This document shows positions 20,171 through 56,441 of a stretch of DNA of 64,000 nucleotides, in pieces. The DNA is from Alphaproteobacteria bacterium (GTDB lineage: Bacteria; Pseudomonadota; Alphaproteobacteria; SHVV01): positions 256,001-320,000 of the forward strand of contig OZ253470.1 in assembly GCA_965261735.1 (NCBI GenBank). Direction: 5' to 3'. Made by a program: the position numbers and the translations under genes. Every line of letters starts with the position of its first letter. The first letter of the stretch is position 1. The notes below the pieces were generated by a model that did not search any database, was not told the origin of the DNA, and saw only the letters and a program-made list of their open reading frames with translations.

Positions 20171-20197
20171 CGTCTCACACCTCTGCACCCTTGGTGC
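20171..20197 (-). other. oriT: Candidate MOBF oriT nick region
   Basis: Minus strand reads GCACC-AAG-GGTGC-AGAGGTGT^GAGACG: a short hairpin, 8 nt, then a GGTGT-ending nick, as in R388/IncN/F-type nic sites. Located in the low-GC gap upstream of the relaxase. Confidence 0.65.
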
Positions 20198-20381
20198 TTT
20201 GGGTCGATGAATGTAATGAGTGTTGACCTGACCTGCAGAGATCGCATGGCCGTTACGTTAAGCCCCTGTAAAATACAGGAATTCCCAAAGCTGGAATCAT
20301 GAGAGCTACGACAGTCAAATTCCAGCTGTGTTCCGGCCAGGTTGTATCCCTATCCGGCAACCTCGTTACCGGGCTGGCGTC

Positions 20382-23300
20382 ATGGTAGCCACTCTGGCCC
20401 AGGCCGCCTCGGCCGCCTATTACCTGGAGAGCCAGCGCTCTTTCAGACATCCCAACGAGTACTACACGGCGGGAGAAGAACCCGACGGCGTCTGGTTCAA
20501 TCCGAAGGGCCTGTTCGGACTCGCGGACGACGGCAAGGTCGATAGCAGCGATTTCCACCGGCTGTACAACGGCTTCGCACCGAACACCGGAGGAAAACTG
20601 ACACAAAATGCGGGCAGCGAACGCCGTTCTGCGGGTTTGGACATGACCTTCAGCGCTGACAAGAGTGTCTCCGCCTTGTGGGCGGTCGCCGATCCCGAGC
20701 TGCGATCGGAGATGGAGAAGGCTCATAACGATGCGGCGCGTGTGGCGCTGGAAGAAACTGTGCTGCGCCATTGCGCCTATACCCGTACCCGTACCCAGGA
20801 CGGCGATATCGAGGTGCTGTCCGCCGATATATCTGCCGCGATGTTCCAGCATGGAACCAGCCGGGACAACGACCCGCAGCTTCATACCCACTGCGTGATC
20901 TTCAATGCCGCCCGGACACACCGCGACGGCAAGTACCGAGCGCTGCATCAGCATCCGGTCTACACCTGGATGAAAGCGGCGGGGGCAGTCTACCGCACTG
21001 CCATGGCATGGAGCCTCCAAGAGCGTCTCGGTATCCGCATGGAACAGTATGGAAAGGATGGAGAGTTTACGCGCATCGCAGGCATGCCCGAGGACTTGAT
21101 CGGACACTGGTCGAAGCGCCGGATGGCGATTATCGAAGCGGCCCGGGAGATGGGCTTTACGGTCGAAGGCAACGCGCCGCGCGCGGCGGCGGCGAACAAG
21201 ATCACGCGGGTCGGCAAGTCGCCGGACAACGACCCGGAGATTCGCCATGCGCGCTGGCGCGGAGAAGCGGAGGGGTATGTCGAGCGGGAAGCACTGATTG
21301 CCTCGATATTGGACAAGGCGCAAGCCATTATGCAACAGCAGATCCGGGCGCTGACGGAAGTCCTGGAAAACCTGCCGGAACGCCTCACGCGCGAGGAGGC
21401 GGTGTTTCGCCTCCCGGACATCGTCGAGCGGGTTGGCAACGCCACCGCCGGGCTCCTGAACCGCGATGCGGTAGCAACAAGCATAGAGCGTGTTCTTCTG
21501 AGCCCAGAGGTGGTGCGACTGACCCGCCCTCCGCGTTCGGCCGAGGGCCGGGCCGACATGGCGCATACCAGGCTCTATTCAACCCGTCACAACCTGCAGA
21601 TGGAGATGGAAGTCAGGGATATGGCGGAGGGCATGGCCGCCGGTAAGGGACATTCCCTGTCCGCCCAGGTCATCGAGGCAAAGGTGGTGGGGCTGCTAAA
21701 GGCGGGTTATCCGCTGAGCGAAGAACAGATCACGGCAATACGGACGGTCACGTCTTCCGGGGGCCGGGTCGCCATCATCGAAGGAGCGGCAGGTTCTGGC
21801 AAGACCACGACGTTGCGGCCCATCGCCGATCTCTATCGCGAACACGGACAGAGCATCATCGCCACCGCCGTGGCCTGGCGGACAGCAGTGGCGTTGGGCA
21901 ACGATGTCGATGCGCGCCCGTTCTGCGTCGACAAGCTGCTGCGCCTTGCCGCGCGGGGCGGGATCGAGATTAACAAGGATACCACCATCATCGTCGATGA
22001 GGCGGGGATGCTGTCGACCCGCCAGGCGCATCACATTCTCCAGCTCTCCGAGCGCCATGGAGCGAAGATCGTCTTCGCGGGCGACACGCAACAACAGCAA
22101 CCCGTGGAAGCTGGACCGGGGTTGAGGTTGATTCGCGACGCCGTTGGCAGCGTGCGGGTGGACCGCATACGGCGCCAGAAAGCGGACATCGAGGATATCC
22201 TGGTTCATGTCCATGGTGAGACGCCGGAGGCAGCGCGGTTCCGGGCAGGGCTTATGGGAGAGCAAGAACGCGCCAAAAAGCTTGGCAATTACGAGGCCAT
22301 GACTGAGAAACCCCAGTTCACGCCGTGGCAGGTTTCCGCGTCGGAAGCGTTGCGCGATGGAGATGCGGCATCGGCCATCGCGGCCCATCACACAAGGAGG
22401 CGGTTCCATATCGGGTATGACGAAGAAAAGACGCTGACGGGTCTGGTCGATGATTGGGACAGTTACCAGAGGACAAACCCTGGCAAATCCAGTGTGGTGC
22501 TGGCCCGCACACGGGCCGAGGTGCGGGCTCTTTCGCATCTCATGCGGGAGCGTCGTTTCGCCGCCCTGCCGGATGGTGATCAGCCCGATACGGAACGGGT
22601 AACGGTGATGGTAAGCAGGGGTACAGAAGACGATCGTGCGGCTTCTCCATTGGAGATCGCGCGCGGCGACCAACTGCGTATCGGCGCCACGCACTGGGAG
22701 AAGCAGCTGTTCAACGGCACCGTGGTCACGGTGGACGACTTCAAGGTTCAAAGAGGGGAGGCTGGTACGGAACCAAGTGTCCTGATATCGGCTCGCACCG
22801 AGGATGGGCGGTCCGTCGCGTTCCGCCACGACGAGATCCGCGACTGGTACGGCAATGTCCGTCTCGATCATGGCTATGCCCTCACTATTACCTCCGCCCA
22901 GGGGTTGACCGTGGACCGGACGTTCCTGTTGGCGGATGCAAGGCCCGCGCGTGAAACCATCTATCCCGCGGCGACGCGCCACCGCGAAGGGCTCGATATT
23001 TACGTTAACCGGGCACCGCTCGCTCTCGATATCGCCGACAGGCGAGCGGACAACGACCGGGAAATCGCGGTGACGGACACCGAGATCCGGGCGTATCTGG
23101 CCGAACGCTGGTCGAGGTCGCAACCGAAGGAGGCCGCGCTCGACTACATGGCCGCGGGCAAATGGGAAAACCGGCGGGAGAATGTCAAGGAGGATAGAAG
23201 TCGGTCCGCCGGAGAAACACAGGCCGAGGCGGGCCAGGGACGGGCGGCGGAGAACGACAACACGCTGGCCCGTATCGCGCGGGATATTCGGCGCACCGCC

Positions 23301-24557
23301 TTCGGCTGGCGTCATGCCCAGACGGTAGCTTCGTTCGTAGACGGCCGCAGGCGAGTTCTGGCGGCTTACGATGAACTCCGCGAGCGCACCCGAGCCGAGG
23401 GCGACTCTGTGGCGCTGGGCCGGGCATTTCGAGAAACCCTCAACCGGCACGCCGTGCTGCTGAAACAGGCCGCGGCCTTCCACGCCCGGCCGGACGACTT
23501 CGCCTCCCTTCTGGCCCAGCGCGGCGGCATCGGGCACAAGGACCTCGACGCCTTCGAGGATCTCCATACACGGGCGCGACGCCACCGGCGCGCGGCCACG
23601 ATGCGCTATGTGCATCGGATCAAGCGGGAGGCCGAACAACAGGGGCTCGAGCCCGAGAGGCGCCACGGAGTGCTGCCGCTTGGGGGCCGAGCCATTGAAG
23701 CGGCCGAACGAGCCGAAACGGAAGAGCGGAATACGATTGCGGCGCCAACCGAGGTTCATGCCGGCGAGGCGGTGCCCGCAAGGAACGTGGAACCCGCGAA
23801 GCCGTACTGGTATGCGCCCTACATGGCATTGCGCCAGGACTGGAACGCCTTCATCGAAGGTGCCCGGCAAGCTGGGATGATGACGTTCTATGCCAAGGGG
23901 TATGCGGACATGATCCCGCGCATCCGGGACCTCGCAGAGAACCCGGATGTCCCAGCCGTAACACGGGCGCCCATGATGCAGGTTCTGGAGAATCACCAGC
24001 GTTATTTCTCGACGCGCAAACATATTGAGGACTACCTGGACCAAGTGGACCGGCACATAGAAGAACACGACTCCATGGAAAGCCTGGCCGAAGAGCTCGA
24101 CATGAAAGTGGCCGAGATTTCGGATTATCCTGACTGGCGCCGGGAGAACGACCACCTGACGACAGCGGGCGAGGCCATCCTCTCGGACATGGAGACCCAC
24201 GGTCCCCATCTCGATCACATCCTGATCGGCGAGACACGCATGAAATGGGCGCTCTTGAACATGAGCCGCGCCATCCGCCGCGACGACGAGGCCATCAGCG
24301 AGGAAGCCATCGCGGCCGAAAAGCTGCTTGCCCAGCCGGAAACGTCCGAGGAGCGGGAGCAGCGGGCCGAACTGGAGGCTCTCAAATTCCGTCGGCTCCA
24401 GTCGGCTGTGGACGATGCAGCCACACAAGAGGAGCGCGAGGCGGCGCAAAAGGAATTCGACGACTATGTCGAGCGCCACTCCGGAAAGTACGATTCGCCC
24501 AGCGAAGAGGAGCACGAGGGCCGCTCAATATCCAGGAGCTGGAGCATCCGCCTGTAA
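20382..24557 (+). CDS. traA: MOBF (TrwC-type) conjugative relaxase-helicase
   Basis: N-terminal YY..EYY tyrosines, GLDMTFSADKSVS, HUH motif FQHGTSRDNDPQLHTHCV, WSKRR; helicase GAAGSGKTT, DEAGM, GDTQQ, HGYALTITSAQGLTVD. Confidence 0.95.
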   Translation: MVATLAQAASAAYYLESQRSFRHPNEYYTAGEEPDGVWFNPKGLFGLADDGKVDSSDFHRLYNGFAPNTGGKLTQNAGSERRSAGLDMTFSADKSVSALWAVADPELRSEMEKAHNDAARVALEETVLRHCAYTRTRTQDGDIEVLSADISAAMFQHGTSRDNDPQLHTHCVIFNAARTHRDGKYRALHQHPVYTWMKAAGAVYRTAMAWSLQERLGIRMEQYGKDGEFTRIAGMPEDLIGHWSKRRMAIIEAAREMGFTVEGNAPRAAAANKITRVGKSPDNDPEIRHARWRGEAEGYVEREALIASILDKAQAIMQQQIRALTEVLENLPERLTREEAVFRLPDIVERVGNATAGLLNRDAVATSIERVLLSPEVVRLTRPPRSAEGRADMAHTRLYSTRHNLQMEMEVRDMAEGMAAGKGHSLSAQVIEAKVVGLLKAGYPLSEEQITAIRTVTSSGGRVAIIEGAAGSGKTTTLRPIADLYREHGQSIIATAVAWRTAVALGNDVDARPFCVDKLLRLAARGGIEINKDTTIIVDEAGMLSTRQAHHILQLSERHGAKIVFAGDTQQQQPVEAGPGLRLIRDAVGSVRVDRIRRQKADIEDILVHVHGETPEAARFRAGLMGEQERAKKLGNYEAMTEKPQFTPWQVSASEALRDGDAASAIAAHHTRRRFHIGYDEEKTLTGLVDDWDSYQRTNPGKSSVVLARTRAEVRALSHLMRERRFAALPDGDQPDTERVTVMVSRGTEDDRAASPLEIARGDQLRIGATHWEKQLFNGTVVTVDDFKVQRGEAGTEPSVLISARTEDGRSVAFRHDEIRDWYGNVRLDHGYALTITSAQGLTVDRTFLLADARPARETIYPAATRHREGLDIYVNRAPLALDIADRRADNDREIAVTDTEIRAYLAERWSRSQPKEAALDYMAAGKWENRRENVKEDRSRSAGETQAEAGQGRAAENDNTLARIARDIRRTAFGWRHAQTVASFVDGRRRVLAAYDELRERTRAEGDSVALGRAFRETLNRHAVLLKQAAAFHARPDDFASLLAQRGGIGHKDLDAFEDLHTRARRHRRAATMRYVHRIKREAEQQGLEPERRHGVLPLGGRAIEAAERAETEERNTIAAPTEVHAGEAVPARNVEPAKPYWYAPYMALRQDWNAFIEGARQAGMMTFYAKGYADMIPRIRDLAENPDVPAVTRAPMMQVLENHQRYFSTRKHIEDYLDQVDRHIEEHDSMESLAEELDMKVAEISDYPDWRRENDHLTTAGEAILSDMETHGPHLDHILIGETRMKWALLNMSRAIRRDDEAISEEAIAAEKLLAQPETSEEREQRAELEALKFRRLQSAVDDAATQEEREAAQKEFDDYVERHSGKYDSPSEEEHEGRSISRSWSIRL

Positions 24558-25096
24558 CTGCAACCCGTTTGGCCACATCCGCGCCCTTTCCCGTGACCTC
24601 GTGGCATGGATGCCGCCAATCACCGAACAGGTAATGCTCGACTGACAGGCACAGAACCCCACCGTATTTTCAGCTTGACGCGGGTTTCAGATCGAACAAC
24701 ATCTTACCTCCCGTCCTATTGAGACGGGCTCACAAAACGGGCACGGGGTTCGGTCGGCCTTCGATCAGAAATCCGTATCAATAAGCCTCCGCCACGAGGC
24801 GGAAGATCAGATCGTCCAGCCAGCCCGTCAACGGATTGTCGACAACCGTTTCCTCCGCAAGCAGACTCTCGGGCTCGGTGCTCTTGGTCCAGAACCTCGC
24901 GTCCCAGAGATCCCGGCGCGCCTCGGCAAGTGCAAAAAGATGAATGCTTGGTGTTTGGCATCGCTCCCATTCAGCCGAGCGGAACCGCTTTCCGGCCGAC
25001 CATGTTGTTCGGCGTGGGTGTTCAACGCCGATAGGCATGCTAACCCATTGACGTTCCGAGAGTCTGGGGGGTCAAGCGCCTACGCCTAACAACAGC

Positions 25097-25224
25097 ATTG
25101 CCAAGTTAACTGATTGTAGGCTGTTTTCGGCATTTCCCCATGAAGCTAAGCCATTGAATTTGCATAGGGCAGCCATCGACAATTTATCGAAATTTTCGGA
25201 GTAAATCGGGTTAACTTGACAAAG
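25097..25224. mobile_element. MITE-like element, copy A
   Basis: Terminal inverted repeats TTG(C/T)CAAGTTAAC ... GTTAACTTGACAA; ~85% identical by hand alignment to the reverse complement of 29264-29390. Confidence 0.8.
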
Positions 25225-25420
25225 CCTCGGCACCAGCACCCCGCGCGGGCCGGCCTCAGCCATTTTCATCGATGTGCCGGTCGTCCAGCGCCCGGTCGCG
25301 TCCACCTCCAGCTCGCCCGTGCCGTAGCCCAGAATCCCCCACACCGAGAGCCGCTCGCTCAGCGCAAGCCGCGCATAGGGAGGGGTGCACGCTCGTGAGC
25401 GTGGTCCCCCGCAACCCTGC
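25225..25420 (-). pseudogene. Fragment of an autotransporter-like beta-barrel domain
   Basis: Pieces in two frames, TLTSVHP.. and LSERLSVWGILGYGTGELEVDATGRWTTGTSMKMAEAGPRGVLVP, ending exactly at the MITE boundary. Confidence 0.5.
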
Positions 25421-25549
25421 CCTCGAGATCAACGTAGCTGAACAAGCTGCCCCTAGACTCGTCTGAACCTCGCATCCGTTCCTCCTTCGGTCCACAAACC
25501 GAAAGAATCACTCACCGACTCCAAAGGCGAGGACTTTTTCAGCATCCTG

Positions 25550-26524
25550 CTAGTGGGCCATCTCCCGGATCAGGGCCTTGACCATTCGGGCCGCGTTGCC
25601 CGCCGCCAGGCGGAGGAAGACTTCGAGCTGGTTGGCCTGCCCGCTTCCTCCGGCGAGGTCCGAAAGGCTCCTGACCGCGATGAACGGAACACCGTTTGCG
25701 AAAGCGACATGCGCCACGGCGGCGCTTTCCATATCGAGCACCTGTGCGCCGAAGGTCTCGAAGGCGTAGTCGCGAAACGCCGCATTGTCGATGAAGGCCC
25801 CGCCCGATACGCCAGAGCCGCCGACCGCGACCCGGGGGGCATGCCGCAGGCACCGGTTTTCGGCAGTGCAGCGGTCAAGCGAGACCGTGGCGGCCGCCTA
25901 CCGCGCTTGGGCGAGGAGCGTTTCGTCCACCGGAAACCAGAAGCGTGTTTCGGGCCCGGCCGAGCCGGCTCGGCTGACGATCACCGACCGCGGGAACATC
26001 ATGCCGAAATTCGCAAACGGGTATTCGAAGAACGGCGGCTTCTCCCAGCCGTCTCCGGCCTTTTGCGCGAACAGCATCTCCAGGTATTGGCCCCAGCGGT
26101 CGGCGATCACGACATCGTCGATCCTGAGACCGGGGTCCACCCCGCCCGCAATGCCGGAAAAGACGATGCTTTGGACATGGAAACGGTCGAGCGCGGGCTG
26201 CACCGTCATCGCTGCATTCACCACGCTGATACCGCTCAGGAACAGCACGACATCGCGGCCCTCGAGCCGGCCGGTGACGAACTCGACGCCGTTCACGGAA
26301 TACACGGCACTGTCCTGGAGGCCCGCCTTCAGGATCGACATTTCCGGCAGGAAGGCCGAGACGACGGCGATCCGGCTCGTGCCGTCGTCGCGGGGATGCG
26401 CAGCCGCCGGCAGTGCGAACGCCGCCGCCATCAGGGCCCCAACGGCGAGACCGGCGACGGTTCTCACCAAGACCGCTATCCGCCGCAAGCGTCGCCCTTC
26501 GGGAACCGAAAGTATCTGGACCAT
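25550..26524 (-). pseudogene. mtnN: 5'-methylthioadenosine/S-adenosylhomocysteine nucleosidase with signal peptide, interrupted by one in-frame TAG
   Basis: RIAVVSAFLPE, LSGISVVNAA, VFSGIAGG, then TAG at 25898-25900. The same frame continues GVSGGAFIDN..LDMESAAVAHVA..VPFIAVRSLSDLAGG. Confidence 0.88.
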
Positions 26525-27157
26525 CTATCCATCTCCCGGACGGTTCGCATGCGAGCCGACAATCGTCGCTATTCGTCGAGCGCCATTACTGGCCCGGAGT
26601 CCGCAGGCAAGCAACCATATTTCTTTCGGGCAGTGCGGCAGTCTTCTGATCTGTCAGGCTGACGCGGGTAGCCAGCGGCGAGTACAACGGCCAAGCCGCG
26701 TCTGGCGCGCTGATCGTTCCCGGCGAGGCGTAAGCGCGGGAGGCGGCACGGGCTGCATCGTCTATCGCAAGCTGACGAATTTCCACGGCCCGTCGGCAAC
26801 GCCGACCGGGATCTTGGTTCGCTTTTCAGTATCCATGTAGTTGTCAAGACAACCGGCACTTACCTGCGTCTCCGAAGCACCGCGCGCCGGTCAGAGGGCG
26901 TGCTGAGCTGTAAGCTGGGCGACGAAATCGCGCGCCATTGACGTGGCCCGAACTCTTTGCATCCTTGCACTTAAGCCGTCAGTTACTTCAACACGTCGCC
27001 GCATGCCAACGTGCCGTAACTCGAACCGCTTGACCATGGAGTGGCGCAGGTTCTGGCCTTTGACGCTTGTCGCAAATCGAGTAATCGACACGATCTAAGA
27101 CCTGTAAGGAATCTCGTATGCGAATTGCGAAAGTCGGGATAGTCAAACGAATTGATC

Positions 27158-29176: not shown

Positions 29177-29263
29177 GATGAACTCGACATTGGCGAACTA
29201 AAATGCACGGGGAAAAGCGTGTTCGAGGGAATACCCATTCGGTAACGCTTGCCCGTCTAGCGA

Positions 29264-29690: not shown

Positions 29691-29691
29691 G

Positions 29692-49027: not shown

Positions 49028-50259
49028 TCGGGCGTCCACCCGACATGGTCGGCGAGTGCGCGCCAGGGATAGCTGTTGGCCGCCGCCGCGCCGTCGAGGG
49101 TCACGATCAGCTCGCCGCGCGACCAGCGCCACGCACCGGCCGTCCCGCGACTGCCGTTGCCGTCTCCCAATACCGCGGTAAGAGTTCCATCCGCCCTGAA
49201 GCGGAACCCGGAATCCTCGCGATCCATGAAGGGCAGCGTGACCGGGCCGCTTAGCGCCGCCAGCCAATCGGTCAGCCGCATCGCGGCGTACCGTTCTCCG
49301 GTGGGCAGCAGCGGCAGCGCGTCGCCGACCCGGAAACGCGGGCGCAACGGCAGTCGCTCGTATTGCAGCGCGATCTCCGTGCCGCCCGCCGCCGGGACGA
49401 GATGGCCGGTATCGGCGATTGCGCCAGTATCGCCGCTGCCGTCGAGTAGCCACAACTCGTCGCGATCCGGACCGAGCACCAGAACATGGCGCGCACCGCC
49501 ATTGTCGACCAGCACCCGGCCGTTGTTATCTTCGAGGAAGCGCTTGAGCGCCGCAGCCGGCAGGGTTGCATGGTCCCCCGACGCCGCGATTCCGGTCGCT
49601 CCCGGTCCGCGCAGCTCGGAGCCCGGAAATCCGCGCACGGGCGCATCCAGGTCCTGTGCCGCCATCTCGTCGAATACCGCCGAGGTCTGCCTCTCGTTGA
49701 TCGGCAGGTCCGCCGGCAACGCCAAGTCCGGGCAGGCGTCCTTCATCGCCCGCGGCCAGCTTTCCTGAACCCAGCCGCGCGAAGCCACTGCCCAGACGCC
49801 GGACGCGGCTCCCAACGCCTCGTTGTGCAGCACGCCGGTGGCGGGATCGTAGAAGATCGGGGTGTGGCCGCGCCGCTGCCCGGGATCCGGCTCCACGCCC
49901 GTCTCGTTGAAATTGTAGAGCGCGCGGAACTCGCGGGACGGCACCACCCGCCAGCGCGCGGTTCCGGGCGCATAGGCGCCGCCGAGTTGGGCGCAGGCGC
50001 GAAGCGTGCCGTCCGGGCCGTGGTAATGCGCCCAGACGGTATTGCGATCACCAGCACGCCGCGAGTTCGGCCGCTCCAGGATCCAGACGCGGCCTTCGAG
50101 CAGGCCGGTGAAGAAGCCGGCGGCGTGGGAGCTGTAATTGGGAGATCCGGGAGCGGCTTGCGCCAAAGCGCCGCTCGTTCCGGGATTGCTTGCCATGAGA
50201 GCGGCCAACGCTATCGATGCAATGGCGAGCGACGGAGTTGGAAGCCGTGTCATCGTCAT
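49024..50259 (-). CDS. Secreted hypothetical protein in the pilus cluster
   Basis: AAGGA RBS, signal peptide, ATGA coupling at both ends. Confidence 0.75.
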   Translation of the reverse strand: MTMTRLPTPSLAIASIALAALMASNPGTSGALAQAAPGSPNYSSHAAGFFTGLLEGRVWILERPNSRRAGDRNTVWAHYHGPDGTLRACAQLGGAYAPGTARWRVVPSREFRALYNFNETGVEPDPGQRRGHTPIFYDPATGVLHNEALGAASGVWAVASRGWVQESWPRAMKDACPDLALPADLPINERQTSAVFDEMAAQDLDAPVRGFPGSELRGPGATGIAASGDHATLPAAALKRFLEDNNGRVLVDNGGARHVLVLGPDRDELWLLDGSGDTGAIADTGHLVPAAGGTEIALQYERLPLRPRFRVGDALPLLPTGERYAAMRLTDWLAALSGPVTLPFMDREDSGFRFRADGTLTAVLGDGNGSRGTAGAWRWSRGELIVTLDGAAAANSYPWRALADHVGWTPE

Positions 50260-51938
50260 GTTCCTTTGGTGGTGTTTGCTCCGGCAACCATGCGGCCGTC
50301 CGGTTCCGTCCAACACGCCGCGAGGCGGCGCACCATGGCGGCATAGATCCCAAACGCCCCGTCTTCGTCGCCCGCGGCGATAGCCGCGATGGCCGCGTCG
50401 ATACGGCCGCCGATCCAGTCCCAGTCCGAATGTCCTTGGGGAATCGCGGCGGCGATGCGGGGCGCGATTTCGTAATATTCGGCGACCAGCGCCCGGCGTT
50501 TGGGCGTTTTCATCATGTAGCCGTCGCGGAAGCGCCGTAGCGCGGTCAGGGTCGGCCCGTCATCCGCTTCGATGCCGCGCCGCTCGACAATCGCCGTGGT
50601 CAGGAAGCAACCGCCTCCACCGCCGCCGCCTCCACCGCCGCCACCGAACCCGCTGGTGTCGAACCCGATACTGCTGTCGACGCTGCAGACGTCCGTGCCG
50701 GCGTCGGGGTCAAGGGACGGGCTGCAGGAATCGCCACCCGGACCGCCCGCACCGCCGAAGCCTCCCGCGTCCGGCTCGCCTCCGCCGACATCACCAACGC
50801 CGCCCCAATCCGGCGGGGTCACGGCCTCACAGCTGTCCGTCTCCAGAATCCAGGGGCCGTAATTGATCTGCACGATCGGCTCCGCGTCCCACGGGAACTG
50901 GGTCGCCCGCCGGGTCGCGGTGCGCCGGTAGTCCTGGCTTCCCGTGTAGCCGGGCGGGCAGCCATCGGTCATCGCTTCGGTTTGCGCGGTCTCCGTCATC
51001 ACCGCCGTGGGCGGCACGGGAACCTTGCCGGTCCAGCAGCTCGTCGAGACGAATTCGGGCGGACCCAACGTCTCGCCCTCCGCCGTCACGCTCTTCAGGC
51101 GGCGCCAGATCTCGCGGCCTTCCATGCGCCGGTTGTGCGGCGGCCCGGCGTCCCAGTGGCAGACCAGCGTGTAGTTCTCCCAGGCCGTGTAATTGGCCCG
51201 GCATTCGTCGATCAGAAGCTGCCAGGGGCCATGGACCGGGTCGCCCACCGGGTTGCCGCGTTCGTCATGGGTTTGAGTGACCTCGCGCACTCTTGTGCGG
51301 CCCTGGCCGTGCTCACCGGCGGCACAATCCTCGATCTGCCGTTCGCGGCTCACACGTTCGTTGGTGTGGGCGTAAGGATCGCGCACGGTGCCGGCGAGCG
51401 CGGTGCGGCCCGAGGGCAGCGGCCCGCCGAAAGCGGTATCGGACAGGCAGGCGGGGAGTGTCACTGAAGGGCGGCCCGCAGCACCCGTGGCCCGGCCTGC
51501 TTCCAGCCAGTGCAGCACCGGCGCCTGGCCATTCGCTCCGCCGCCGGCGTAGGCATGGGGCGCTGCCTGGACCGCGCGGTGATCGCGGCCGACGCCCTTG
51601 AGACGCTCAGGCGCGAGATAGACCAGCAACGTGTCTTCGCAATAACGCGCCCGCACGCCGCGCAACGTCCAATCGGCAAGCCAGCCGCTGCCGGCCGGCG
51701 GAACCGCGCCGCTCCAGCCCGAGACGCCTGCGCCATCCGGATCGGGAGTGCCGGCGGAGCCCGCGAGAATATAGCTCTCCAGGCGGCGCCAGGCCGTGGT
51801 CACCGCGCGCGCATGGGCCAGCGCTTCCTGGCGGTAGACACGTTCGTTCGCGGATTGTTGCGCGACCGCCGGTGCAGCTGTGAGAAGCGCGCACAGGCTG
51901 ACTCCGGCCAGCATGGTTGCTCGGAATGTTCTACTCAT
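50256..51938 (-). CDS. Secreted Cys-repeat protein with poly-Gly linker and CFI-box-CTERM-type domain (putative pilus adhesin)
   Basis: AGGAGG RBS, signal peptide, three Cys-bounded repeats, G12 run, then CFLTTA....D.PTL.ALRRFRD.YM..P....LV.EYY.IAP.IA. Confidence 0.8.
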   Translation of the reverse strand: MSRTFRATMLAGVSLCALLTAAPAVAQQSANERVYRQEALAHARAVTTAWRRLESYILAGSAGTPDPDGAGVSGWSGAVPPAGSGWLADWTLRGVRARYCEDTLLVYLAPERLKGVGRDHRAVQAAPHAYAGGGANGQAPVLHWLEAGRATGAAGRPSVTLPACLSDTAFGGPLPSGRTALAGTVRDPYAHTNERVSRERQIEDCAAGEHGQGRTRVREVTQTHDERGNPVGDPVHGPWQLLIDECRANYTAWENYTLVCHWDAGPPHNRRMEGREIWRRLKSVTAEGETLGPPEFVSTSCWTGKVPVPPTAVMTETAQTEAMTDGCPPGYTGSQDYRRTATRRATQFPWDAEPIVQINYGPWILETDSCEAVTPPDWGGVGDVGGGEPDAGGFGGAGGPGGDSCSPSLDPDAGTDVCSVDSSIGFDTSGFGGGGGGGGGGGGCFLTTAIVERRGIEADDGPTLTALRRFRDGYMMKTPKRRALVAEYYEIAPRIAAAIPQGHSDWDWIGGRIDAAIAAIAAGDEDGAFGIYAAMVRRLAACWTEPDGRMVAGANTTKGT

Positions 51939-53269
51939 GGGGTACCTCCTTGTCCGGAAACCTGTTCGGAATTGCGCTCCGCGCCTGGTGCCGGAACGCC
52001 TGTCAGCTCGCGGAATCCCGCATGCGTCATCGCCTCCGGCGCCACGGGACGGCCATGCAGGCGCCATCCCCCGCCGGCAATGCGGCCCAGCGCTGTGATC
52101 TCGAGTCTTGCGAGGCCGCCGGAAACGCGGAATAGATCGGCGAGGTGTGACAACGGGCCGGAATGGCCGATCCGAACGGTCCAGCCACCTTGTGGGCCGC
52201 GTGCGTAGTCGATCCTCGCCCCACGAAGGCCAAGTTCACGGTCGACAGCACGGCGAAACACAAGAAAGGAAAGTGGCGCGCCGTCAGAGATGCGGAGCAC
52301 GAGGCCCAATGGCAGGACTGCCCAGGCGCGGGCATCGATCACGGACGCGGCGTACCAGCGCGACAGATGTTGCTCGGCGAGTTGCCGGTGCAGAGGCTCG
52401 GCGTGGCCGGGGCCAAGCCGCCAGCGCACCAGCATGACCGCGCGGCCCGCCAGTTCGGGGCGGAGCGCGGCAAGTTCGGGATCGGTGAAGCGTGCGGCGC
52501 AGGTAAGGCTCTCGATCCTCCAGGCCGGCAGCCAGGGCGGATAATCGATCAACGCCCGCCGGCAGGCTTCTATCAGCGCGGCGCTATCGACCGCTACCGC
52601 CAGATCCGGGTCGGTTGGCGGAGCGGCGGCGACCACGGGTTCCGATCCGGCGATCCAGTCCACGAGCGCATCGCGCTGGAGCCAGGCGATCCACACACCA
52701 GCAATGGCGGCTGGCAACAGCAGGACCAGCGCCAGGTGAGCGCGCCCAATTCTCGTAAACGGCGCGCGGCGGAGCACATTCTCCGGCGCGGCGGCGAGCA
52801 GGGAAGCATCGAGTTCCGTGACATCGCGGTCCGCGCCGGCGGCGAGCAGCCCTGGCGTCGCATAGAGATCCCAGCCCAGTGCTCGCGCACGGTTGAAGGC
52901 TTCGACGGCAGCATCCCGAGTGGTAAAGACTTCATCGCCATCGGCGAGGACGGCGCCATCGCGCACCTTGATCAGCGCGTAATGCCCGGTATCGCCGGTA
53001 TCGGTTGAATTTTCCGTGGCCGCATCGCCCGCGACCAGAGCCATCCAGAATTCGCTCTCGATCGAATCGGCCAACGCCGGCGCCAGCGCCGGGAGCCCGT
53101 CGGGGAGATCGCCTTCGGCACCGCCGGCATAGCCGGTCTGACCCACCCGGTGTACGCACCAGGGCCGCGCGAAGCGGCGCGCGGCGCGCGCCGTGGTGGC
53201 CGCACCGGCCCGCTCCAACCAGTAGAGCCCTGCCGCGAAGGGCTGTCCGTAGATGACGAGCCTGCTCAA
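51935..53269 (-). CDS. pilO: Type IVb pilus protein PilO2
   Basis: TTG start overlapping the pilN stop; FAAGLYW, LPALAPALA, YALIKVRDGAVLADGDEVF, central TM, LPAWRIESLTC. Confidence 0.75.
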   Translation of the reverse strand: MSRLVIYGQPFAAGLYWLERAGAATTARAARRFARPWCVHRVGQTGYAGGAEGDLPDGLPALAPALADSIESEFWMALVAGDAATENSTDTGDTGHYALIKVRDGAVLADGDEVFTTRDAAVEAFNRARALGWDLYATPGLLAAGADRDVTELDASLLAAAPENVLRRAPFTRIGRAHLALVLLLPAAIAGVWIAWLQRDALVDWIAGSEPVVAAAPPTDPDLAVAVDSAALIEACRRALIDYPPWLPAWRIESLTCAARFTDPELAALRPELAGRAVMLVRWRLGPGHAEPLHRQLAEQHLSRWYAASVIDARAWAVLPLGLVLRISDGAPLSFLVFRRAVDRELGLRGARIDYARGPQGGWTVRIGHSGPLSHLADLFRVSGGLARLEITALGRIAGGGWRLHGRPVAPEAMTHAGFRELTGVPAPGAERNSEQVSGQGGTP

Positions 53270-54882
53270 AACGCCATCCCCCGGACTTCCGCGATGCCGA
53301 GCGGCGGGCCGATGTCGGCGGTTATTAGAAGCACCTGTTCGATGCGGGCCGTGGACGCCTTGCGCCCGCCGCCGGGCAACGGCAAATCGGCATCGAAGGT
53401 GCCCGAACGCCCGGCGGCAGTACTGCGGTCGGAAAACCCGGTCACCATCAGCGTCTCGCCGCGCCCGATCTTCTGCGTCACCTGAATGGCCCGGCTGGCG
53501 TAGGCCGGGAGCTGGATCGTCTGGCTGTTCGAGGTAAAAGCGGTGAAAGACGGGCGGTCGCGCAGGCTCGCGAACAGCCGCACCAGCACCTCGCCGGGAC
53601 CGGTGATGCGGGGCAGGTAGCTCACCGCGAAGCCCGAGGAGACCGTGCCTGGCACGAGCTCGGTCTGGGCGATGCCATCGCCTGCCGTGGTGCGCAGCTC
53701 GCGCAGATAGGCTTCCTGGAAGAGTTCGAAGAACTGCGCCGGCTTGCCGTTCAGCGATGGGATGTCGGCCGACAGCACCCGCGAGACCGCGCCCGCGCTG
53801 TTCAAGGCCTTCACCGTCGCCGACAGCGTATCGCCGCTCCCGCCGCCGGGGGAGGGCTTGATCAACGCCACCGCGTTTGCGCCCACCGAGACGCGCACCG
53901 CCTCGCCGAGCAGCCGGGCGATGGAGAAGCTCAGGCCGAGATCGTAATCCGCCTCGCGCTCGACGCGCACCGAATAGACATGCACCGACAATGTGACGGG
54001 GCGCAGCACCTCGCGGTTGAGATAGCCGAGGTACGCCCGCGCCCGGGCGATATCGCGGGGCGTGCCGCTCACCGTCACCGAGGCGCTCGATGGCGCCACC
54101 GACAGCCGCGTTCCCGGATCGAGCAGCTCTTTCAACTGGTCCTCGATCTCGGGCCACGGGTCGTAGTCCGTTTCGGTCGAGATCGACTGGCTGGTGAGGT
54201 TGCCGCCGCCGTCTCCGGCTGCGCTGTCCTGGGTCGAGGCCGACACCGTGTAGCGCTGCGTGCCGGCCAGCGCATGAATATGAAAGACCGCGTAACGGCG
54301 GCGCACGATCTCGATCGCTTGCCGGTCCGCATCGTAACGCCACTCGTAACCGTAAGGTTCGGTCCAGGCATCGAGCAGAGCGTCGAGCGGACCGGTCCAG
54401 ATTCCGCCGTCCGGCGACAACCCGTCGCGTCCGGCCGCGCCAAGGAGATGCACGGGCGGTTCGCCGCCCGTCGTCTCATCTGCCCGGCGCGGGGGACCGG
54501 CAAACCGCACCGCGAGGCCGGTCGCCGCCTCGATGCGTGCCATCAGTACCGCCGCAGCGCCGATCCCGGCCAGCGGCAGCGTTACCGCGTCCACGCGGCG
54601 AAAGCGCGCCGGCAGACCGGCGCGAGGATCGGGCTCGATCCGCGTCAATCCGACATAGGGCCGCCGCTCGATCAGGCGCACGCTGGATAGGCGCGGGCCG
54701 GCTTGCGGCGGCCGCAGGGCCGAGACCTGCTGCGCGACATCCCCGGTCTCCATCCTCGCGTGTTCGACCTCGGCCAGGCCGCAGCCCGCAAGCATGGCGA
54801 CCGCGAATGCGAAACAACCGGATCGCGCGAAACGGAAACGCAAACCCGGATGCTGGAAAGTAAACAGGCGTTCACCGGTCAT
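53266..54882 (-). CDS. pilN: Type IVb pilus secretin (PilN-like lipoprotein)
   Basis: Lipobox LAGC; WTGPLDALLD, SVTVSGTP, SLNGKPA, YLREL.TT, LVPGTVSSGF, TIQLP, GETLMVTGF, LITADI. Confidence 0.85.
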   Translation of the reverse strand: MTGERLFTFQHPGLRFRFARSGCFAFAVAMLAGCGLAEVEHARMETGDVAQQVSALRPPQAGPRLSSVRLIERRPYVGLTRIEPDPRAGLPARFRRVDAVTLPLAGIGAAAVLMARIEAATGLAVRFAGPPRRADETTGGEPPVHLLGAAGRDGLSPDGGIWTGPLDALLDAWTEPYGYEWRYDADRQAIEIVRRRYAVFHIHALAGTQRYTVSASTQDSAAGDGGGNLTSQSISTETDYDPWPEIEDQLKELLDPGTRLSVAPSSASVTVSGTPRDIARARAYLGYLNREVLRPVTLSVHVYSVRVEREADYDLGLSFSIARLLGEAVRVSVGANAVALIKPSPGGGSGDTLSATVKALNSAGAVSRVLSADIPSLNGKPAQFFELFQEAYLRELRTTAGDGIAQTELVPGTVSSGFAVSYLPRITGPGEVLVRLFASLRDRPSFTAFTSNSQTIQLPAYASRAIQVTQKIGRGETLMVTGFSDRSTAAGRSGTFDADLPLPGGGRKASTARIEQVLLITADIGPPLGIAEVRGMAF

Positions 54883-54985: not shown

Positions 54986-55657
54986 TCACGCCGACTTCCG
55001 GACGGGACTGCCCTCGTCGGAAGTCGAGCTGTACCGGCGTTCCGCCGCCCACGCCTCGACATCGGCGCGGGCGTAGCGCACCCGGTTGCCGAACTTGTGA
55101 AACCTCGGACCCGCGCCGCTGACCCGGTAGCGGTCCAGCGTGCGCGGGCTCAGGCCCAGAAAGGACGCCAGCTCGCGCGTGCCCATGTACTGCCAGGCGT
55201 CGTCGCCCATGTCGTAATCTCCCTTGAAGATGTCTTGCGGGATCTCCTCGTCCCCGGACGCCATGGCCCGGATCGCCCGGACTTCCTCCGCGCTCGCGGC
55301 GCGCTCCATCGAGGCGCGCGCCTTGTCCACGGTGGCGAGCCGGGGCGATCCGCCCCGGCGCAGCCAGCTCACGAAGGACGGATTGCCGCTCGCTGCCCGG
55401 CCAAGTTCCGAGGACTTGGCCCCGGTGACCGCCAGGAACGCGTCGACCTCGCGCCGGAAGCCGAGCCCGATGGGTTCGAGTCCCATGAAGGCCAGTAGCC
55501 GGTCGGCGGTATCCAGGCGCGGCGAGCGGCCGCGGCCGAAGTCGGTGACGAAGGACGGATCGCCCAGCGCCGCCTCTCCGAACCGGGTGCGGCTCATGCC
55601 GCGCTTTTGGATGAAGGCCTCGATGGCCAGCCGCAGCGATGTTTGGAAACCTGTCAT
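54986..55657 (-). CDS. Regulator with two tandem Cro-like HTH domains plus an excisionase-type (HTH_17/AlpA) domain
   Basis: Two copies of EAF....G.S...G.AA.G.PSFV....RG.SPRL.T.D, then YMGTRELASFLGLSPRTLDRYRVSGAGPRFHKFGNRVRYARADVEAW. Confidence 0.82.
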   Translation of the reverse strand: MTGFQTSLRLAIEAFIQKRGMSRTRFGEAALGDPSFVTDFGRGRSPRLDTADRLLAFMGLEPIGLGFRREVDAFLAVTGAKSSELGRAASGNPSFVSWLRRGGSPRLATVDKARASMERAASAEEVRAIRAMASGDEEIPQDIFKGDYDMGDDAWQYMGTRELASFLGLSPRTLDRYRVSGAGPRFHKFGNRVRYARADVEAWAAERRYSSTSDEGSPVRKSA

Positions 55658-55748
55658 GACCGAGAACGTATGGGGAACATACGGCCTTGACAATATATTT
55701 TGATATTGAATACACTATGTATCAACGTCAAACACGCGAAGGGCTACG
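55658..55748. promoter_or_regulatory. Divergent promoter/operator region
   Basis: AT-rich gap; TTGACA(55687)-N18-TACACT rightward; TTGACG(55731)-N17-CAATAT leftward; palindrome CAATAT-N6-ATATTG at 55691-55708. Confidence 0.6.
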
Positions 55749-56441
55749 ATGGAACGCGACCCGCTACGACAAAAAATCAAGGACCTGCTCTGGAAGCGCG
55801 GCCTCACCATGAAGGAGGCCTCCGCTGCCATCGGCCGCAGTCCGAGCTACATGCACCAGTTCCTGGAGCGCGGCACCCCGGCAACGCTCAACTACGGCGA
55901 CAGCGAAAAGCTTGCCGGGCTGCTAGGCTGCGGTGCGGGCGAGCTGCGCCCTGCCGAGGCGCCGAGGCGAAAGCCGCAGAAGCGCAGGCGGCGCACCCCG
56001 CCGGCCGCTCTTCCCGGCGCGCCGCTTGCCGCCATCCCCGAGATGGCGGTCGAGGCCGCCGCCGGAGCGGGGGCGGCAGGCGAGGAATTCGCCACCGAGA
56101 AAGCGCGTTGGTACCTGCCCGAGAGCATGATCCGTCACGAGGGCGATGCCGAACCCGGCAATCTCCGTGTCCTGCGCGCGCGCGGCGACTCCATGGAGCC
56201 CCTCGTCTCCGACGGCGACCGGCTGCTGGTCGACGTTACCCGCCGCGCGCCCGGCACCGGCGAGACGGCGGTGCTGTGGGACGGCACCGGCCTCGTGGTC
56301 AAGCGGGTCGAGGTCCTGCCCAACGCCGAGCCGCCCCGGCTCAGGCTGATCTCCGCCAATCCCGCGTACGAACCCTACACATGCCTGGCCCAGGACGCGC
56401 ACATCGTCGGCAAGGTCCTCTGGACCTTGAGGCGCATGTGA
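55749..56441 (+). CDS. CI/LexA-like repressor (HTH + S24 autopeptidase)
   Basis: LTMKEASAAIGRSPSYMHQFLERG HTH; catalytic ARGDSMEP and VVKRV; LISANPAY, IVGKV. Confidence 0.92.
   Translation: MERDPLRQKIKDLLWKRGLTMKEASAAIGRSPSYMHQFLERGTPATLNYGDSEKLAGLLGCGAGELRPAEAPRRKPQKRRRRTPPAALPGAPLAAIPEMAVEAAAGAGAAGEEFATEKARWYLPESMIRHEGDAEPGNLRVLRARGDSMEPLVSDGDRLLVDVTRRAPGTGETAVLWDGTGLVVKRVEVLPNAEPPRLRLISANPAYEPYTCLAQDAHIVGKVLWTLRRM

Follow-up and report, generated by a model that had tools for sequence, protein, structure and literature searches.

A chromosomal, probably conjugative Dot/Icm-type element family in uncultured Alphaproteobacteria with a TraG/VirD4-type coupling protein

Introduction

The IncI1 plasmid R64 carries an MPF_I transfer system (traH-traY, trbA-C, pilI-V, and nikAB) that uses the TrbC/DotL coupling protein (T4CP), TrbA/DotM, and the MOBP relaxase NikB. 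The T4BSS plasmids Roseomonas mucosa pSKB0092-2 and Bosea pBSY19_1 retain IcmO/DotL, DotM, DotB, and DotC; the Roseomonas plasmid belongs to the MOBP type. Another pairing, that of Icm/Dot genes with a Ti-type TraA (traA) relaxase, is described for Rhizobiaceae plasmids in PMC5613091. In Martelella pMM259, Sinorhizobium sp. CCBAU 05631, and Shinella sumterensis NZ_CP132309, the MPF_I channel is accompanied by such a non-MOBP relaxase (MobA_MobL, MOBQ) and by a TrwB/TraD-like T4CP (PF10412, 202 bits) in the Dtr module; these systems are plasmid-borne, and the stretch examined shows no cluster of type IVb pilus genes. A search of the Shinella record for DotL/TrbC and DotM found neither. Given these Icm/Dot-TraA plasmids, and a TrwB-like coupler in the one tested (Shinella), the idea of a coupler swap has precedent. 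Ti-type Dtr modules (traA-oriT-traCDG; Sphingomonas and Rhizobiaceae plasmids) hold T4CPs that work with MPF_T (VirB/Trb) channels and with relaxases of the MOBQ type. The chromosomal Dot/Icm systems described in the earlier account PMC3158045 are effector systems.

Here we describe a locus in the window, the whole 64,000-bp stretch of DNA that was analyzed. The assemblies used are metagenome-assembled genomes (MAGs), and the window genome is 98% complete. We are fairly confident that 16.4-56.6 kb of the window is the transfer module of an integrated conjugative element, one of a family in uncultured Alphaproteobacteria that combines a TraG/VirD4-type T4CP with a type IVB channel. The element reads as a chromosomal mosaic, in which a type IVB (Legionella-like) channel and pilus are joined to a coupler and a relaxase from other plasmid lineages. 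Like R64, it has a collinear traM(dotI)-traN-traO-traP/Q-traU-traV-traW-traY order, a TraU-type ATPase, IcmT/TraK, a type IVb thin-pilus cluster (PilN, PilO, PilP, PilQ, PilS, PilV, and prepilin peptidase), and a Dsb-like TrbB analogue, and complete copies also share DotB/TraJ and DotC/TraI. Unlike R64, it has a TraG/VirD4-type coupler in place of TrbC/DotL, lacks TrbA/DotM, carries a MOBF relaxase rather than a MOBP one, and is chromosomal, with an RdfS-like excisionase, an S24 repressor, and an SSB gene within the channel operon. Counterparts of R64 traR/S/T/X or excA were not recognized in the element.

Results and discussion

Organization of the element

The type IVb pilus genes and the Dot/Icm (MPF_I) genes form one minus-strand operon with an RdfS-like excisionase gene at its head. 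The general order is RdfS-like excisionase, pilN, pilO, pilP, pilQ..., dotC, dotB, icmT, dotI, dotH, dotG, icmB, dotA, T4CP, and a small membrane protein gene; dotC is absent from the window copy itself. The relaxase-helicase gene, with its own SSB and Toprim genes, is convergent on this operon across a variable cargo region. The relaxase, T4CP, and channel genes all lie within a single block of ~56.7 kb (window positions -53 to 56,643), and this block recurs at 3.42-3.49 Mb of the same genome (copy B) with ~91% nucleotide identity and the relaxase in the equivalent relative position. The block is flanked by IS110 transposases and an ImuB-like polymerase. No integrase was found inside the conserved block, and no IntS-like integrase of the kind known from ICEMlSym R7A was located for the element.

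The first operon gene (54986-55693, minus strand) encodes a 235-aa protein whose C-terminal helix-turn-helix (HTH), residues 168-227, resembles RdfS of ICEMlSym R7A (phmmer against PDB 8dgl, E 4e-8); the window protein differs in having an extra N-terminal part, and the channel types of the two elements differ as well. The longest ORF next to pilN was rejected as the HTH gene, as both GC3 and conservation in related genomes G001 and G003 favor the 54986-55693 frame. Divergent from the operon is a gene for an HTH and S24 (LexA/CI-like) repressor (55749-56441, plus strand; PF00717, 61 bits; GDSMEP and VVKRV motifs).

Channel and pilus genes

All coordinates in this section are on the minus strand. 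DotA/TraY (32503-34815) scores 248 bits on TIGR04346 (cut-off 100), DotH/IcmK/TraN (42198-43169) 150 bits on PF12293, and DotI/IcmL/TraM (43166-43831) 134 bits on PF11393. The IcmB/DotO/TraU ATPase, the MPF_I signature (37000-40122), has no Pfam match; by BLASTP it is 27% identical to R64 TraU over 984 aa (E 3e-90), and by tblastn 35-38% identical to alphaproteobacterial plasmid genes annotated DotO/IcmB. Its identity is 36% to IcmB of the Rhizobiaceae Icm/Dot plasmids and 35-37% to IcmB of the Roseomonas and Bosea plasmids. IcmT/TraK (45301-45573) is 94% identical to a copy B ORF scoring 63 bits on NF038220 (cut-off 40). The ORF at 44678-45850 was rejected as one gene: its upstream half is non-coding in that frame, with IcmT there in another frame, and the TcpQ-domain protein occupies 44678-45290 (PF10671, 36 bits at the C-terminus). 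An SSB gene (36508-36996; PF00436, 100 bits) also lies within the operon, as does a DsbG-like thiol:disulfide isomerase gene (43800-44681; NF008657, 72 bits, cut-off 124), whose product by analogy would play the role of R64 TrbB.

Several other assignments, namely TraW, TraQ, DotG, PilO, and PilP, fall under curated cut-offs. The TraW-like protein (34821-35972; NF033888, 24 bits, cut-off 100) is a weak call by profile, with a position that equals that of R64 traW and presence at 27 loci. Beside it, orf180 (35969-36511) occupies the R64 traV position and is conserved in 26 loci, with no match among Pfam and NCBIfam profiles. Two TraQ-like (IcmC/IcmD-like) small membrane proteins (40136-41286) match DUF6750 (30 bits) and NF033883 (23 and 45 bits, cut-off 80). 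The VirB10-like DotG/TraO (41072-42208) has weak matches confined to its C-terminus (far under cut-off on NF033900, 50 bits, and on NF033884, 37 bits; TrbI, 29 bits). At 45586-46686 lies a dotB/traJ remnant that lacks its start codon and the first ~20-25 model-aligned residues; the full dotB of copy B scores 248 bits on TIGR02524.

In the pilus cluster, the PilN-family type IVb pilus secretin (53266-54882) scores 161 bits on TIGR02520 (cut-off 288) and has weak secretin Pfam matches, the PilO-like protein (51935-53260) scores 19 bits on PF06864 (cut-off 27), and the PilP-like protein (48170-49453), assigned by its C-terminal part alone, scores 23 bits on TIGR03021 (cut-off 35). Two conserved ORFs of 430 and 603 aa between pilO and pilP (49024-52067) are kept in copy B, G001, G003, and G004; there is one CFI-box-CTERM match (44.5 bits) among them. 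The pilQ-like GspE/PilB-type ATPase gene (46680-48173; PF00437, 131 bits; GspE 108 vs TraJ 47 bits) is cut at about codon 498 of 559, the copy B ORF being 559 aa, and its out-of-frame C-terminal tail reads as junk. All of the genes listed by an earlier sequence-only reading are present: dotA, icmB, dotH, dotI, and icmT are confirmed by profile or BLAST matches, dotB and pilQ are truncated, the traW-like, icmD/C-like, dotG, and pilN/O/P calls score under their cut-offs, and the T4CP start and the HTH frame needed correction.

The coupling protein

The T4CP gene (30405-32384, minus strand) lies 118 nt beyond dotA and encodes a 659-aa protein matching PF02534 (133 bits), PF12696, and PF10412. A start at 32633 was rejected in favor of the ATG at 32384, which has an AAGGAG ribosome-binding site and gives a length in line with that of homologues (656-659 aa). 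The best NCBIfam matches are the TraG and VirD4 models, and there is no match to the TrbC model NF041447, which recovers R64 TrbC, Roseomonas IcmO, and the Bosea T4CP with 1043, 274, and 413 bits, respectively. Likewise, in phmmer comparisons the T4CP scores 147 and 129 bits against a pair of alphaproteobacterial TraG proteins (pISP0 and Pseudorhizobium; ~30% identity), 46-47 bits against VirD4 and R751 TraG, and 25 bits against TrwB, and it has no match to TrbC or IcmO. These nearest relatives have their home in Ti-type Dtr modules. In the T4CP tree, where the T4CP branches are long, the split from DotL/TrbC has SH-aLRT support of 99-100 and the grouping of the window T4CP family with VirD4/TraG 93-99, and the AU test rejects a joint clade of the window T4CP with DotL/TrbC (p 0.0005). 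Together, the NF041447 miss, phmmer, tree split, and AU test rule out a DotL/TrbC identity and bear out the earlier assignment to the VirD4/TraG family. In contrast to the Dtr-module T4CP of the Rhizobiaceae plasmids, this TraG/VirD4-like protein is encoded inside the channel operon after dotA.

The ATG of orf238 (29692-30408, minus strand) overlaps the T4CP stop codon (ATGA), so translational coupling of the two is predicted. The orf238 product is a small single-pass membrane protein whose N-terminus is disordered and which further comprises an Arg-rich juxtamembrane stretch, one transmembrane helix, and a ~45-aa two-Cys domain. It has no Pfam or NCBIfam family; tblastn finds it at 47 of 55 related loci, and its C-terminal part is invariant in an alignment of homologues.

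The lack of a recognizable DotL or DotM homologue at the locus, also noted earlier, extends to the genome: TrbC/DotL, DotM, and the MOBP-type relaxase profile PF03432 have no matches in the window genome, TrbC/DotL has none in five of five related genomes, and DotM none in three of three. The same search recovers DotM in R64 and the Roseomonas plasmid, and R64 NikB matches PF03432. Homologous loci carrying their own DotL and MOBP relaxase, which would have spoken for a separate adjacent element, were therefore not found in these searches.

The relaxase and neighboring genes

The TrwC-like relaxase-helicase recognized in the earlier reading is upheld as a MOBF protein (20328-24557, plus strand; probable start ~18 codons into the ORF) with a TrwC N-terminus and an SF1B helicase (PF08751, 227 bits; AAA_30, 135 bits; NF041492 MobF, 211 bits, cut-off 100). 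The catalytic Tyr residues, His triad, and HxTSRxxDPQLHTH motif align with those of TrwC and F TraI, and the helicase part is similar to TraA_Ti, a likeness to the Ti-type modules. Three further full-length copies are present in the same genome (76-78% identity). Upstream on the plus strand lie a second SSB gene (16424-16867; PF00436, 87 bits; 97% in copy B) at the head of this leading/Dtr-side gene set, a primase-like DUF7146 and Toprim_3 gene (17130-18167; PF23639, 109 bits; PF13362, 59 bits; 91% identical in copy B), and a YAcAr/SLOG-domain gene (18282-19370; PF10686, 83 bits) kept in copy B and beside the relaxase of related genome G003. The variable cargo (24558-29691) separates the relaxase from the T4CP module, identity with copy B breaking at 23,687-30,466; on the minus strand it encodes a PNP_UDP_1 phosphorylase (25898-26524; PF01048, 69 bits) and a 672-aa ORF (27158-29176) with no family match in Pfam and NCBIfam profile searches.

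These genes bear on whether the type IVB system might, like those of Legionella and Coxiella, mainly inject protein effectors in a host association, with an incidental relaxase. The effector function of the chromosomal systems in PMC3158045 and a 770-aa ankyrin-repeat protein in one relative's cargo would fit. Yet the relaxase, two SSBs, Toprim protein, RdfS-like excisionase, and S24 repressor travel with the channel, DotL and DotM, the components that recruit effectors, are missing, and the element is multi-copy, with a 97% identical T4CP in a genome of another taxonomic family, indicating recent mobility. We regard an injector as very improbable.

Linkage of coupler, channel, and relaxase

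The locus could instead hold two side-by-side elements, with a mobilizable Dtr unit (MOBF relaxase, TraG-like T4CP, and orf238) lying beside or within a decayed type IVB system whose own DotL, DotM, and MOBP relaxase would have been lost. Of the 55 related loci, 32 have a dotA match beside the T4CP. A near-full T4CP is present at 43 loci, and 14 of these have no dotA within 10 kb, so the T4CP-orf238 pair also occurs without the channel, and some of these dotA-less loci (L028, L029, L050, L052, and L053) do have a relaxase. Relaxase linkage is also looser than T4CP linkage: a relaxase lies within 10 kb of the T4CP at just 16 of 55 loci, relaxase identity does not follow T4CP identity (rho 0.47, n 11), the genomes are rich in TrwC relaxases (5-19 matches each), and in the G005 element mfd directly follows the T4CP, with no TrwC match nearby. 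Against two elements, however, a long dotA match is present at the other 29 of the 43 loci, 27 of which have dotA immediately upstream of the T4CP in the same orientation. The identity of the T4CP rises and falls with that of DotA, TraW, and IcmB (Spearman 0.90-0.94, n 25-28 related and hence non-independent loci), and its co-divergence with DotA and IcmB extends to identities as low as 51%; in gene order the T4CP stands after traY, at the place of trbA-trbC in R64; and no remnant of DotL, DotM, or a MOBP relaxase turned up in the genomes searched. We therefore consider a pair of adjacent elements unlikely. Because the T4CP directly follows dotA in 27 of the 29 dotA-holding loci and diverges in step with the channel genes, the mosaic reads as a real family.

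State of the window copy

Relative to copy B, the window copy has a 7,484-bp deletion that, in this MAG assembly, fuses pilQ and dotB out of frame at ~46,680-46,686, with short GC-rich homology at the junction. The deletion takes the 3' end of pilQ, the pilR-position ORF, pilS, an ORF, pilV, the prepilin peptidase gene, dotC, and the 5' end of dotB, and it accounts for the absence of pilS, pilV, prepilin peptidase, and dotC/traI from the window. Copy B, G001, G003, G004, and G005 all keep the genes from the pilR-position ORF through dotC between pilQ and dotB. Given the loss of the pilin genes, dotC, and the pilQ and dotB ends, the window copy most likely cannot transfer itself. The relaxase and T4CP of this copy are intact, so a complete sibling might mobilize it in trans.

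Copy B is itself imperfect, its 603-aa ORF being frameshifted and its GmrSD gene truncated, and the window genome holds several T4CP fragments. Such decay would be expected if the whole family consisted of non-functional relics that owed their spread to chromosomal duplication and not to conjugation. This is hard to reconcile with intact T4CP ORFs of 642-675 aa at 34 related loci, with a full gene order and frames open over the tblastn matches in four other genomes, with 557 metagenome clusters of close homologues, and with the near-identical T4CP in a different family, and we give it almost no credence.

Implications

We favor a coupler-swapped conjugative element, as the earlier reading had proposed: the T4CP falls outside DotL/TrbC, and no DotL or MOBP relaxase belonging to the channel turned up in the searches made. 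In the mechanism that we propose, repressor cleavage would turn the operon on, the relaxase would nick a putative oriT, and the TraG-like T4CP, without DotL or DotM, would pass the DNA with its bound relaxase on to the type IVB channel, the handover probably occurring via generic contacts, for example with the VirB10-like DotG or the DotO ATPase. The same reading had suggested a distinct, poorly described class of element. The family with a swapped coupler appears real, but its novelty is that of a variant on a theme, Icm/Dot genes with a non-MOBP relaxase, for which Rhizobiaceae plasmids already provide the precedent.

Gene content of the locus and assignment of the transfer genes

The locus is chromosomal, since the window (bases 256,001-320,000) sits within a single 5.03-Mb host contig that is 98% complete. 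Its G+C content is 65-71%, with lower values (58-64%) in the 24-32 kb cargo region. Because the overlapping ORFs of a high-GC genome mislead, reading frames were picked by third-position G+C and by conservation in relatives. On the plus strand we observed, in order, a second SSB, a DUF7146-Toprim protein, a YAcAr/SLOG protein, a conserved 273-aa ORF and a relaxase-helicase. A single minus-strand operon runs from 55,693 down to 29,692. It opens with an RdfS-like HTH gene, a PilN secretin, PilO-like and PilP-like proteins, two ORFs without assignment and a GspE/PilB-type ATPase (pilQ); it continues with a DotB remnant, IcmT, a TcpQ-domain protein, a DsbG-like protein, DotI, DotH, DotG and two TraQ-like proteins; and it closes with a TraU/DotO/IcmB ATPase, an SSB, orf180 (35969-36511, minus strand), a weak TraW, DotA/TraY (248 bits), the type IV coupling protein (T4CP) and a small membrane protein that we call orf238 (29692-30408, minus strand). 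From dotI to dotA the genes follow the order of R64 traM-traY. A gene on the opposite strand, reading away from the operon, encodes an HTH-S24 repressor that contains GDSMEP and VVKRV motifs. Searches of the PDB with IcmB and with the S24 protein returned no match. The left part (positions 1-16,000) of the block that the window shares with a sibling copy holds genes for a ParB-like protein of 1021 aa, an AAA_5 ATPase, a DUF2201 metallopeptidase/VWA protein, a Strawberry-notch-type helicase of 1536 aa and a GmrSD-like nuclease. Just beyond the right end of the block lies a type III restriction enzyme (57622-60903, minus strand; PADLOC REase_III, 733 bits), which together with two weak matches is all that PADLOC reported for the cargo and flanks.

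The 1409-aa relaxase-helicase matches PF08751 (TrwC) at 227 bits, the NCBIfam MobF model NF041492 at 211 bits (cut-off 100) and the AAA_30 helicase domain at 135 bits. Residues Y32, Y45/Y46 and H175...H186-T-H188 are invariant with R388 TrwC and F TraI, as is the HxTSRxxDPQLHTH motif. By HMM and alignment, the protein is a MOBF relaxase, having a TrwC-type HUH domain with the Tyr and His triad joined to an SF1B helicase. Among plasmid proteins, it is closest to the MobF relaxases of Methylobacterium and Azospirillum (approximately 30% identity). The host genome carries four full-length relaxase copies plus fragments, an unusually heavy load of MOBF elements, and each of five related MAG genomes (G001-G005) has 5-19 TrwC-domain relaxase matches.

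The channel ATPase is of the TraU/DotO/IcmB type, with 27% identity to R64 TraU over 984 aa (E 3e-90) and a mere 21-bit trace with the canonical VirB4 model. According to the classification text of PMC3158045, MPF_I is called from at least four type-specific genes among TraI, K, L, M, N, P, Q, R, W and Y. Four of these (TraY/DotA, TraN/DotH, TraM/DotI and TraK/IcmT) score over curated Pfam or NCBIfam cut-offs, TraK/IcmT being counted via a 94% identical sibling ORF. TraQ and TraW score under the cut-off in the window, TraI/DotC is found in the sibling copy only, and DotD/TraH was not identified. The outer-membrane core and DotB ATPase are incomplete in the window copy, where dotC is deleted and dotB is 5'-truncated; dotC and a full dotB are kept in the sibling copy and in four other genomes. 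Likewise, the window does not hold the full set of an R64-type type IVb (thin) pilus (PilN, PilQ, PilS, PilV and PilU). Its only pilus parts are PilN, weak PilO and PilP and a truncated PilQ; PilS, PilV and the A24 peptidase are confined to the sibling copy and relatives, and the PilR platform protein was not recognised in the window, the sibling copy or relatives.

The window copy is a deletion derivative

The sibling copy, copy B, lies elsewhere in the same genome (3,424,042-3,493,676) and is approximately 91% identical to window positions -53 to 56,643 apart from the cargo (23,687-30,466), with its relaxase in the same convergent position. Relative to copy B, the window is without 7,484 bp. 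The window pilQ frame is good until near 46,690 and then passes into an Arg/Ser-rich tail, and the dotB frame starts only at '...PAFIEVDG'. The lost stretch in copy B holds an unassigned ORF at the pilR position, a PilS pilin (PF08805), a 379-aa protein without assignment, PilV (Shufflon_N), a prepilin-peptidase/TcpQ ORF, DotC/TraI (202 bits on PF16932) and the beginning of DotB, whose full gene scores 248 bits on TIGR02524. The complete gene order is also present in G001, G003, G004 and G005, and the window is thus the derived, deleted state. The deletion junction has short GC-rich homology. In public read sets, at most 0.49 of the sampled words occurred in any one run (0.18-0.20 in 'sponge metagenome' runs). 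Four runs yielded short contigs, approximately 100-260 nt long, and among the pieces listed there was none that spans 46,680-46,686; the reads thus neither confirm nor refute the junction.

Given that dotC and the pilin genes are gone and that dotB is headless, the window copy would be very unlikely to build a channel. Its relaxase is full-length relative to the three other copies and its T4CP is intact. The sequence-only reading had described a conjugation machine made up of a MOBF relaxase, a T4CP, a Dot/Icm channel and a pilus. That gene set stands, with dotB and pilQ truncated by the 7,484-bp deletion and traW weak. We conclude that the window copy is a deletion derivative, and it should be flagged as such in annotation rather than as a working system. 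Copy B has an apparent frameshift near codon 35 of the 603-aa ORF (4595-6360 of its locus, L059) and only part of a GmrSD gene, so it may not be fully intact either, or this may be an assembly error.

The coupling protein groups with VirD4/TraG

The T4CP gene starts at ATG 32384, which has an AAGGAG site in front of it, and encodes 659 aa; metagenome homologues of 656-659 aa agree with this start. The protein matches PF02534 (133 bits, residues 172-625), PF12696 and PF10412. Among NCBIfam models it matches those for TraG and VirD4 only, and because it falls far under every equivalog cut-off it belongs to no named subfamily. The motifs GKG and IDEMPRLG, which we take to be Walker A and Walker B, are invariant in the T4CP alignment. 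Together with the PF02534 match and its placement in trees, these mark the protein as a VirD4/TraG-type T4CP.

The TrbC model NF041447 did not match the window T4CP; in the same kind of scan it gave 1043 bits for R64 TrbC, 274 bits for Roseomonas IcmO/DotL and 413 bits for the Bosea T4CP. BLASTP against R64 TrbC returned nothing (E 4). Pairwise phmmer comparisons gave 147 bits with Sphingomonas pISP0 TraG and 129 bits with a Pseudorhizobium plasmid TraG, both from Ti-type Dtr modules (relaxase-side transfer gene sets), 46-47 bits with VirD4 and R751 TraG, 25 bits with TrwB and no match to the DotL/TrbC group. TrwB was also the sole match in the PDB (E 4e-5). We built T4CP trees of 26 rows (by quick search only) and 18 rows. 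DotL/TrbC split off in both (SH-aLRT 99-100), and the T4CP grouped with VirD4/TraG with SH-aLRT values of 93 and 99, respectively. The rival topology, a clade uniting the family with DotL/TrbC, was rejected by the AU test (lnL difference 26.5, p 0.0005). Tree and HMM results agree in indicating that the T4CP lies outside DotL/TrbC; its exact sister group is uncertain because the branches are long. The earlier proposal that this protein is not DotL/TrbC-like is therefore borne out by HMM, phmmer, tree and AU results alike.

The cognate MPF_I coupler, a DotL/TrbC-type T4CP with DotM/TrbA, was not found either. A six-frame family search of the whole host genome gave no matches to TrbC/DotL, to DotM/IcmP or to the MOBP-type family PF03432, and neither the window proteins nor the genome matched NF041447 or NF033890, for which controls were positive. 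TrbC/DotL was absent from all five related genomes, and DotM from all three of them that were searched for it. As positive controls, the same search found DotM in R64 and in a Roseomonas plasmid, and R64 NikB matched PF03432. No operon ORF lacking an assignment matched DotM by hmmscan. DotM accompanies DotL in every record tested that has DotL (R64, Roseomonas and Bosea) and is missing from every one that does not (Shinella, the host genome, G001, G003 and G004), in a sample that is small and non-independent. The initial impression that no DotL or DotM homologue is recognisable thus held in the genome-wide search and in related genomes.

The coupling protein and channel genes are linked across genomes

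A pattern scan of species-representative genomes yielded 55 related loci, all in uncultured Alphaproteobacteria MAGs bar one 2.5-kb contig binned as Gemmatimonadota, with up to four loci in several single genomes. In an even sample of the class, the family occurs in 3 of 400 other genomes, and a protein collection held 557 clusters at E <= 1e-20 to the T4CP, none of them named. Within a 10-kb flank, dotA is present in 32 of the 55 loci and icmB in 27. A near-full T4CP is present in 43 loci, 29 of which have a long dotA match, and intact T4CP ORFs are found in 34. The T4CP-dotA unit picked out from the window recurs, in that dotA lies directly upstream on the same strand in 27 of those 29 loci. 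The identity of the T4CP to the window protein (51-94%) tracks that of DotA, TraW and IcmB (Spearman 0.90-0.94), which shows that T4CP and channel genes have long been inherited together, with the caveat that these loci, being related, are not independent data points. In one of the three genomes from the even sample (G166, C3:1899402-1901378), which belongs to a different taxonomic family of the class, the T4CP is 97% identical to that of the window; this points to recent horizontal movement.

Linkage of the relaxase is weaker than that of the T4CP. A relaxase homologue lies within 10 kb of the T4CP in 16 of the 55 loci, a lower bound because the relaxase in copy B sits 12 kb away, and relaxase identity does not track T4CP identity (rho 0.47, n=11). 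In G005, chromosomal mfd directly follows the T4CP and there is no TrwC match near it. Sibling elements seem to have traded relaxase and cargo modules more freely than they have the T4CP-channel unit. In 14 of the 43 loci with a near-full T4CP (L026-L031, L033, L034, L038 and others), an intact-looking T4CP and orf238 occur with no dotA within 10 kb, and some of these have a relaxase or S24 gene nearby. They may be mobilisable elements with their own coupler, or decayed copies. Beside a distant family member in G004 (L072, 2294-4606 and 10414-19767), the cargo includes a 770-aa ankyrin-repeat/SH3 protein and two ArdC-like zincin proteins.

A variable membrane protein accompanies the coupling protein

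The start codon of orf238 overlaps the T4CP stop as ATGA, and orf238 stands beside the T4CP in 47 of the 55 loci, channel-less loci included. The N-terminus of the protein is variable, acidic and rich in Pro/Ala; an Arg-rich stretch and a single TM helix follow, and the C-terminal two-Cys domain is invariant. The protein gave no family match. It is far more variable than its neighbours, at 33-92% identity against 82-95% for the T4CP; the corresponding values are 36% and 92% for locus L004, and 46% and 87% between the window and copy B. In R64, ExcA and TraY co-vary. We tried orf238 as an entry exclusion factor and set this candidate aside, since variation in DotA, restricted to residues 1-80, does not follow the orf238 groups. 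A predicted complex of T4CP and orf238 scored 0.00, which carries no weight either way on binding. The protein may act as an adaptor, as an exclusion factor or in some other way.

Integration and element ends

The chromosomal location and the RdfS-like HTH in the first operon gene (PDB 8dgl, E 4e-8) bear on mobility, and the latter argues for an element that would excise. No integrase was found in the conserved block or its immediate flanks, and no tyrosine or serine recombinase within the block. Where the identity between the two copies stops, no direct repeats of 11 nt or longer are present. On a larger scale, a 29-bp near-perfect repeat of a tRNA-Gln 3' end (genome 228,914-229,010 and 418,552-418,580) lies 190 kb downstream of the tRNA with the window between, and a 578-aa large serine recombinase ORF stands beside each repeat copy (genome 230,151 and 419,696). 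These features bracket approximately 190 kb that includes the window and suggest tandem or composite islands at tRNA-Gln; the window may therefore lie within a large composite island. An ImuB/UmuC-like Y-family polymerase gene (genome 254,437-255,696) abuts the left end of the block, and this left flank has 91-96% identity to three further genomic sites.

Discussion

From its gene content, the family is best described as an MPF_I variant that combines a MOBF relaxase with a TraG/VirD4-type coupler encoded within the channel operon and that has no recognisable DotL or DotM. The sequence-only reading was largely right in what it observed, and its interpretation withstood the refuting conditions that it had set. 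All functional statements made here about the element are drawn from gene content and comparative genomics. In the section of Guglielmini et al. that treats them, MPF_I T4CPs form a nearly monophyletic clade (PMC3548315). [quoted passage not shown] As far as these passages go, chromosomal MPF_I conjugative elements are extremely rare or absent (PMC3158045, PMC5587801). Against such reports, it is unusual for an MPF_I family to be chromosomal, to occur in multiple copies and to use a foreign T4CP.

Precedents exist in Martelella pMM259-type systems and a related Shinella plasmid. In their account of pMM259, Bartling et al. describe an 'extremely divergent' Icm/Dot system with a traA relaxase and syntenic operons in Sinorhizobium and Ochrobactrum (PMC5613091). 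Neither DotL nor DotM was found on the Shinella plasmid, which has Dot/Icm genes, a TrwB-type T4CP and a MobA_MobL (MOBQ) TraA. Unlike the window family, the Roseomonas and Bosea plasmids have kept both DotL and DotM. We found no paper on the family or on the combination of MPF_I, MOBF and TraG, cases of which could be held in supplementary MOB/MPF tables (PMC3548315, PMC5587801, PMC9185392). The suggestion of a distinct class thus survives for this combination and is tempered by the Rhizobiaceae Icm/Dot plasmids.

A tentative joint reading, which we hold to be somewhat doubtful, is that type IVB channels are coupler-agnostic. In Alphaproteobacteria, DotL-DotM would have been replaced at least twice, by a TraG/VirD4-type coupler in this family and by a TrwB-type coupler in Rhizobiaceae plasmids, with DotM lost each time. 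Docking would then proceed via conserved parts such as DotG/VirB10 or DotO rather than a Legionella-type complex, and orf238 would be a possible new adaptor.

For classification, MPF_I appears here in multiple copies within single genomes of uncultured Alphaproteobacteria, in contrast to the nearly monophyletic couplers and rare chromosomal elements reported. The position and docking of the T4CP on the type IV secretion machine are described as still open in the pertinent section of a recent review, which gives contact of TrwB with the VirB10 N-terminus as the sole characterised one (PMC12857230). If a TraG/VirD4-type coupler has in nature long been paired with a Dot/Icm channel devoid of DotL and DotM, as in this family, docking can be approached by comparison, and surfaces that co-vary between the T4CP and channel proteins would be candidates for a generic docking interface.
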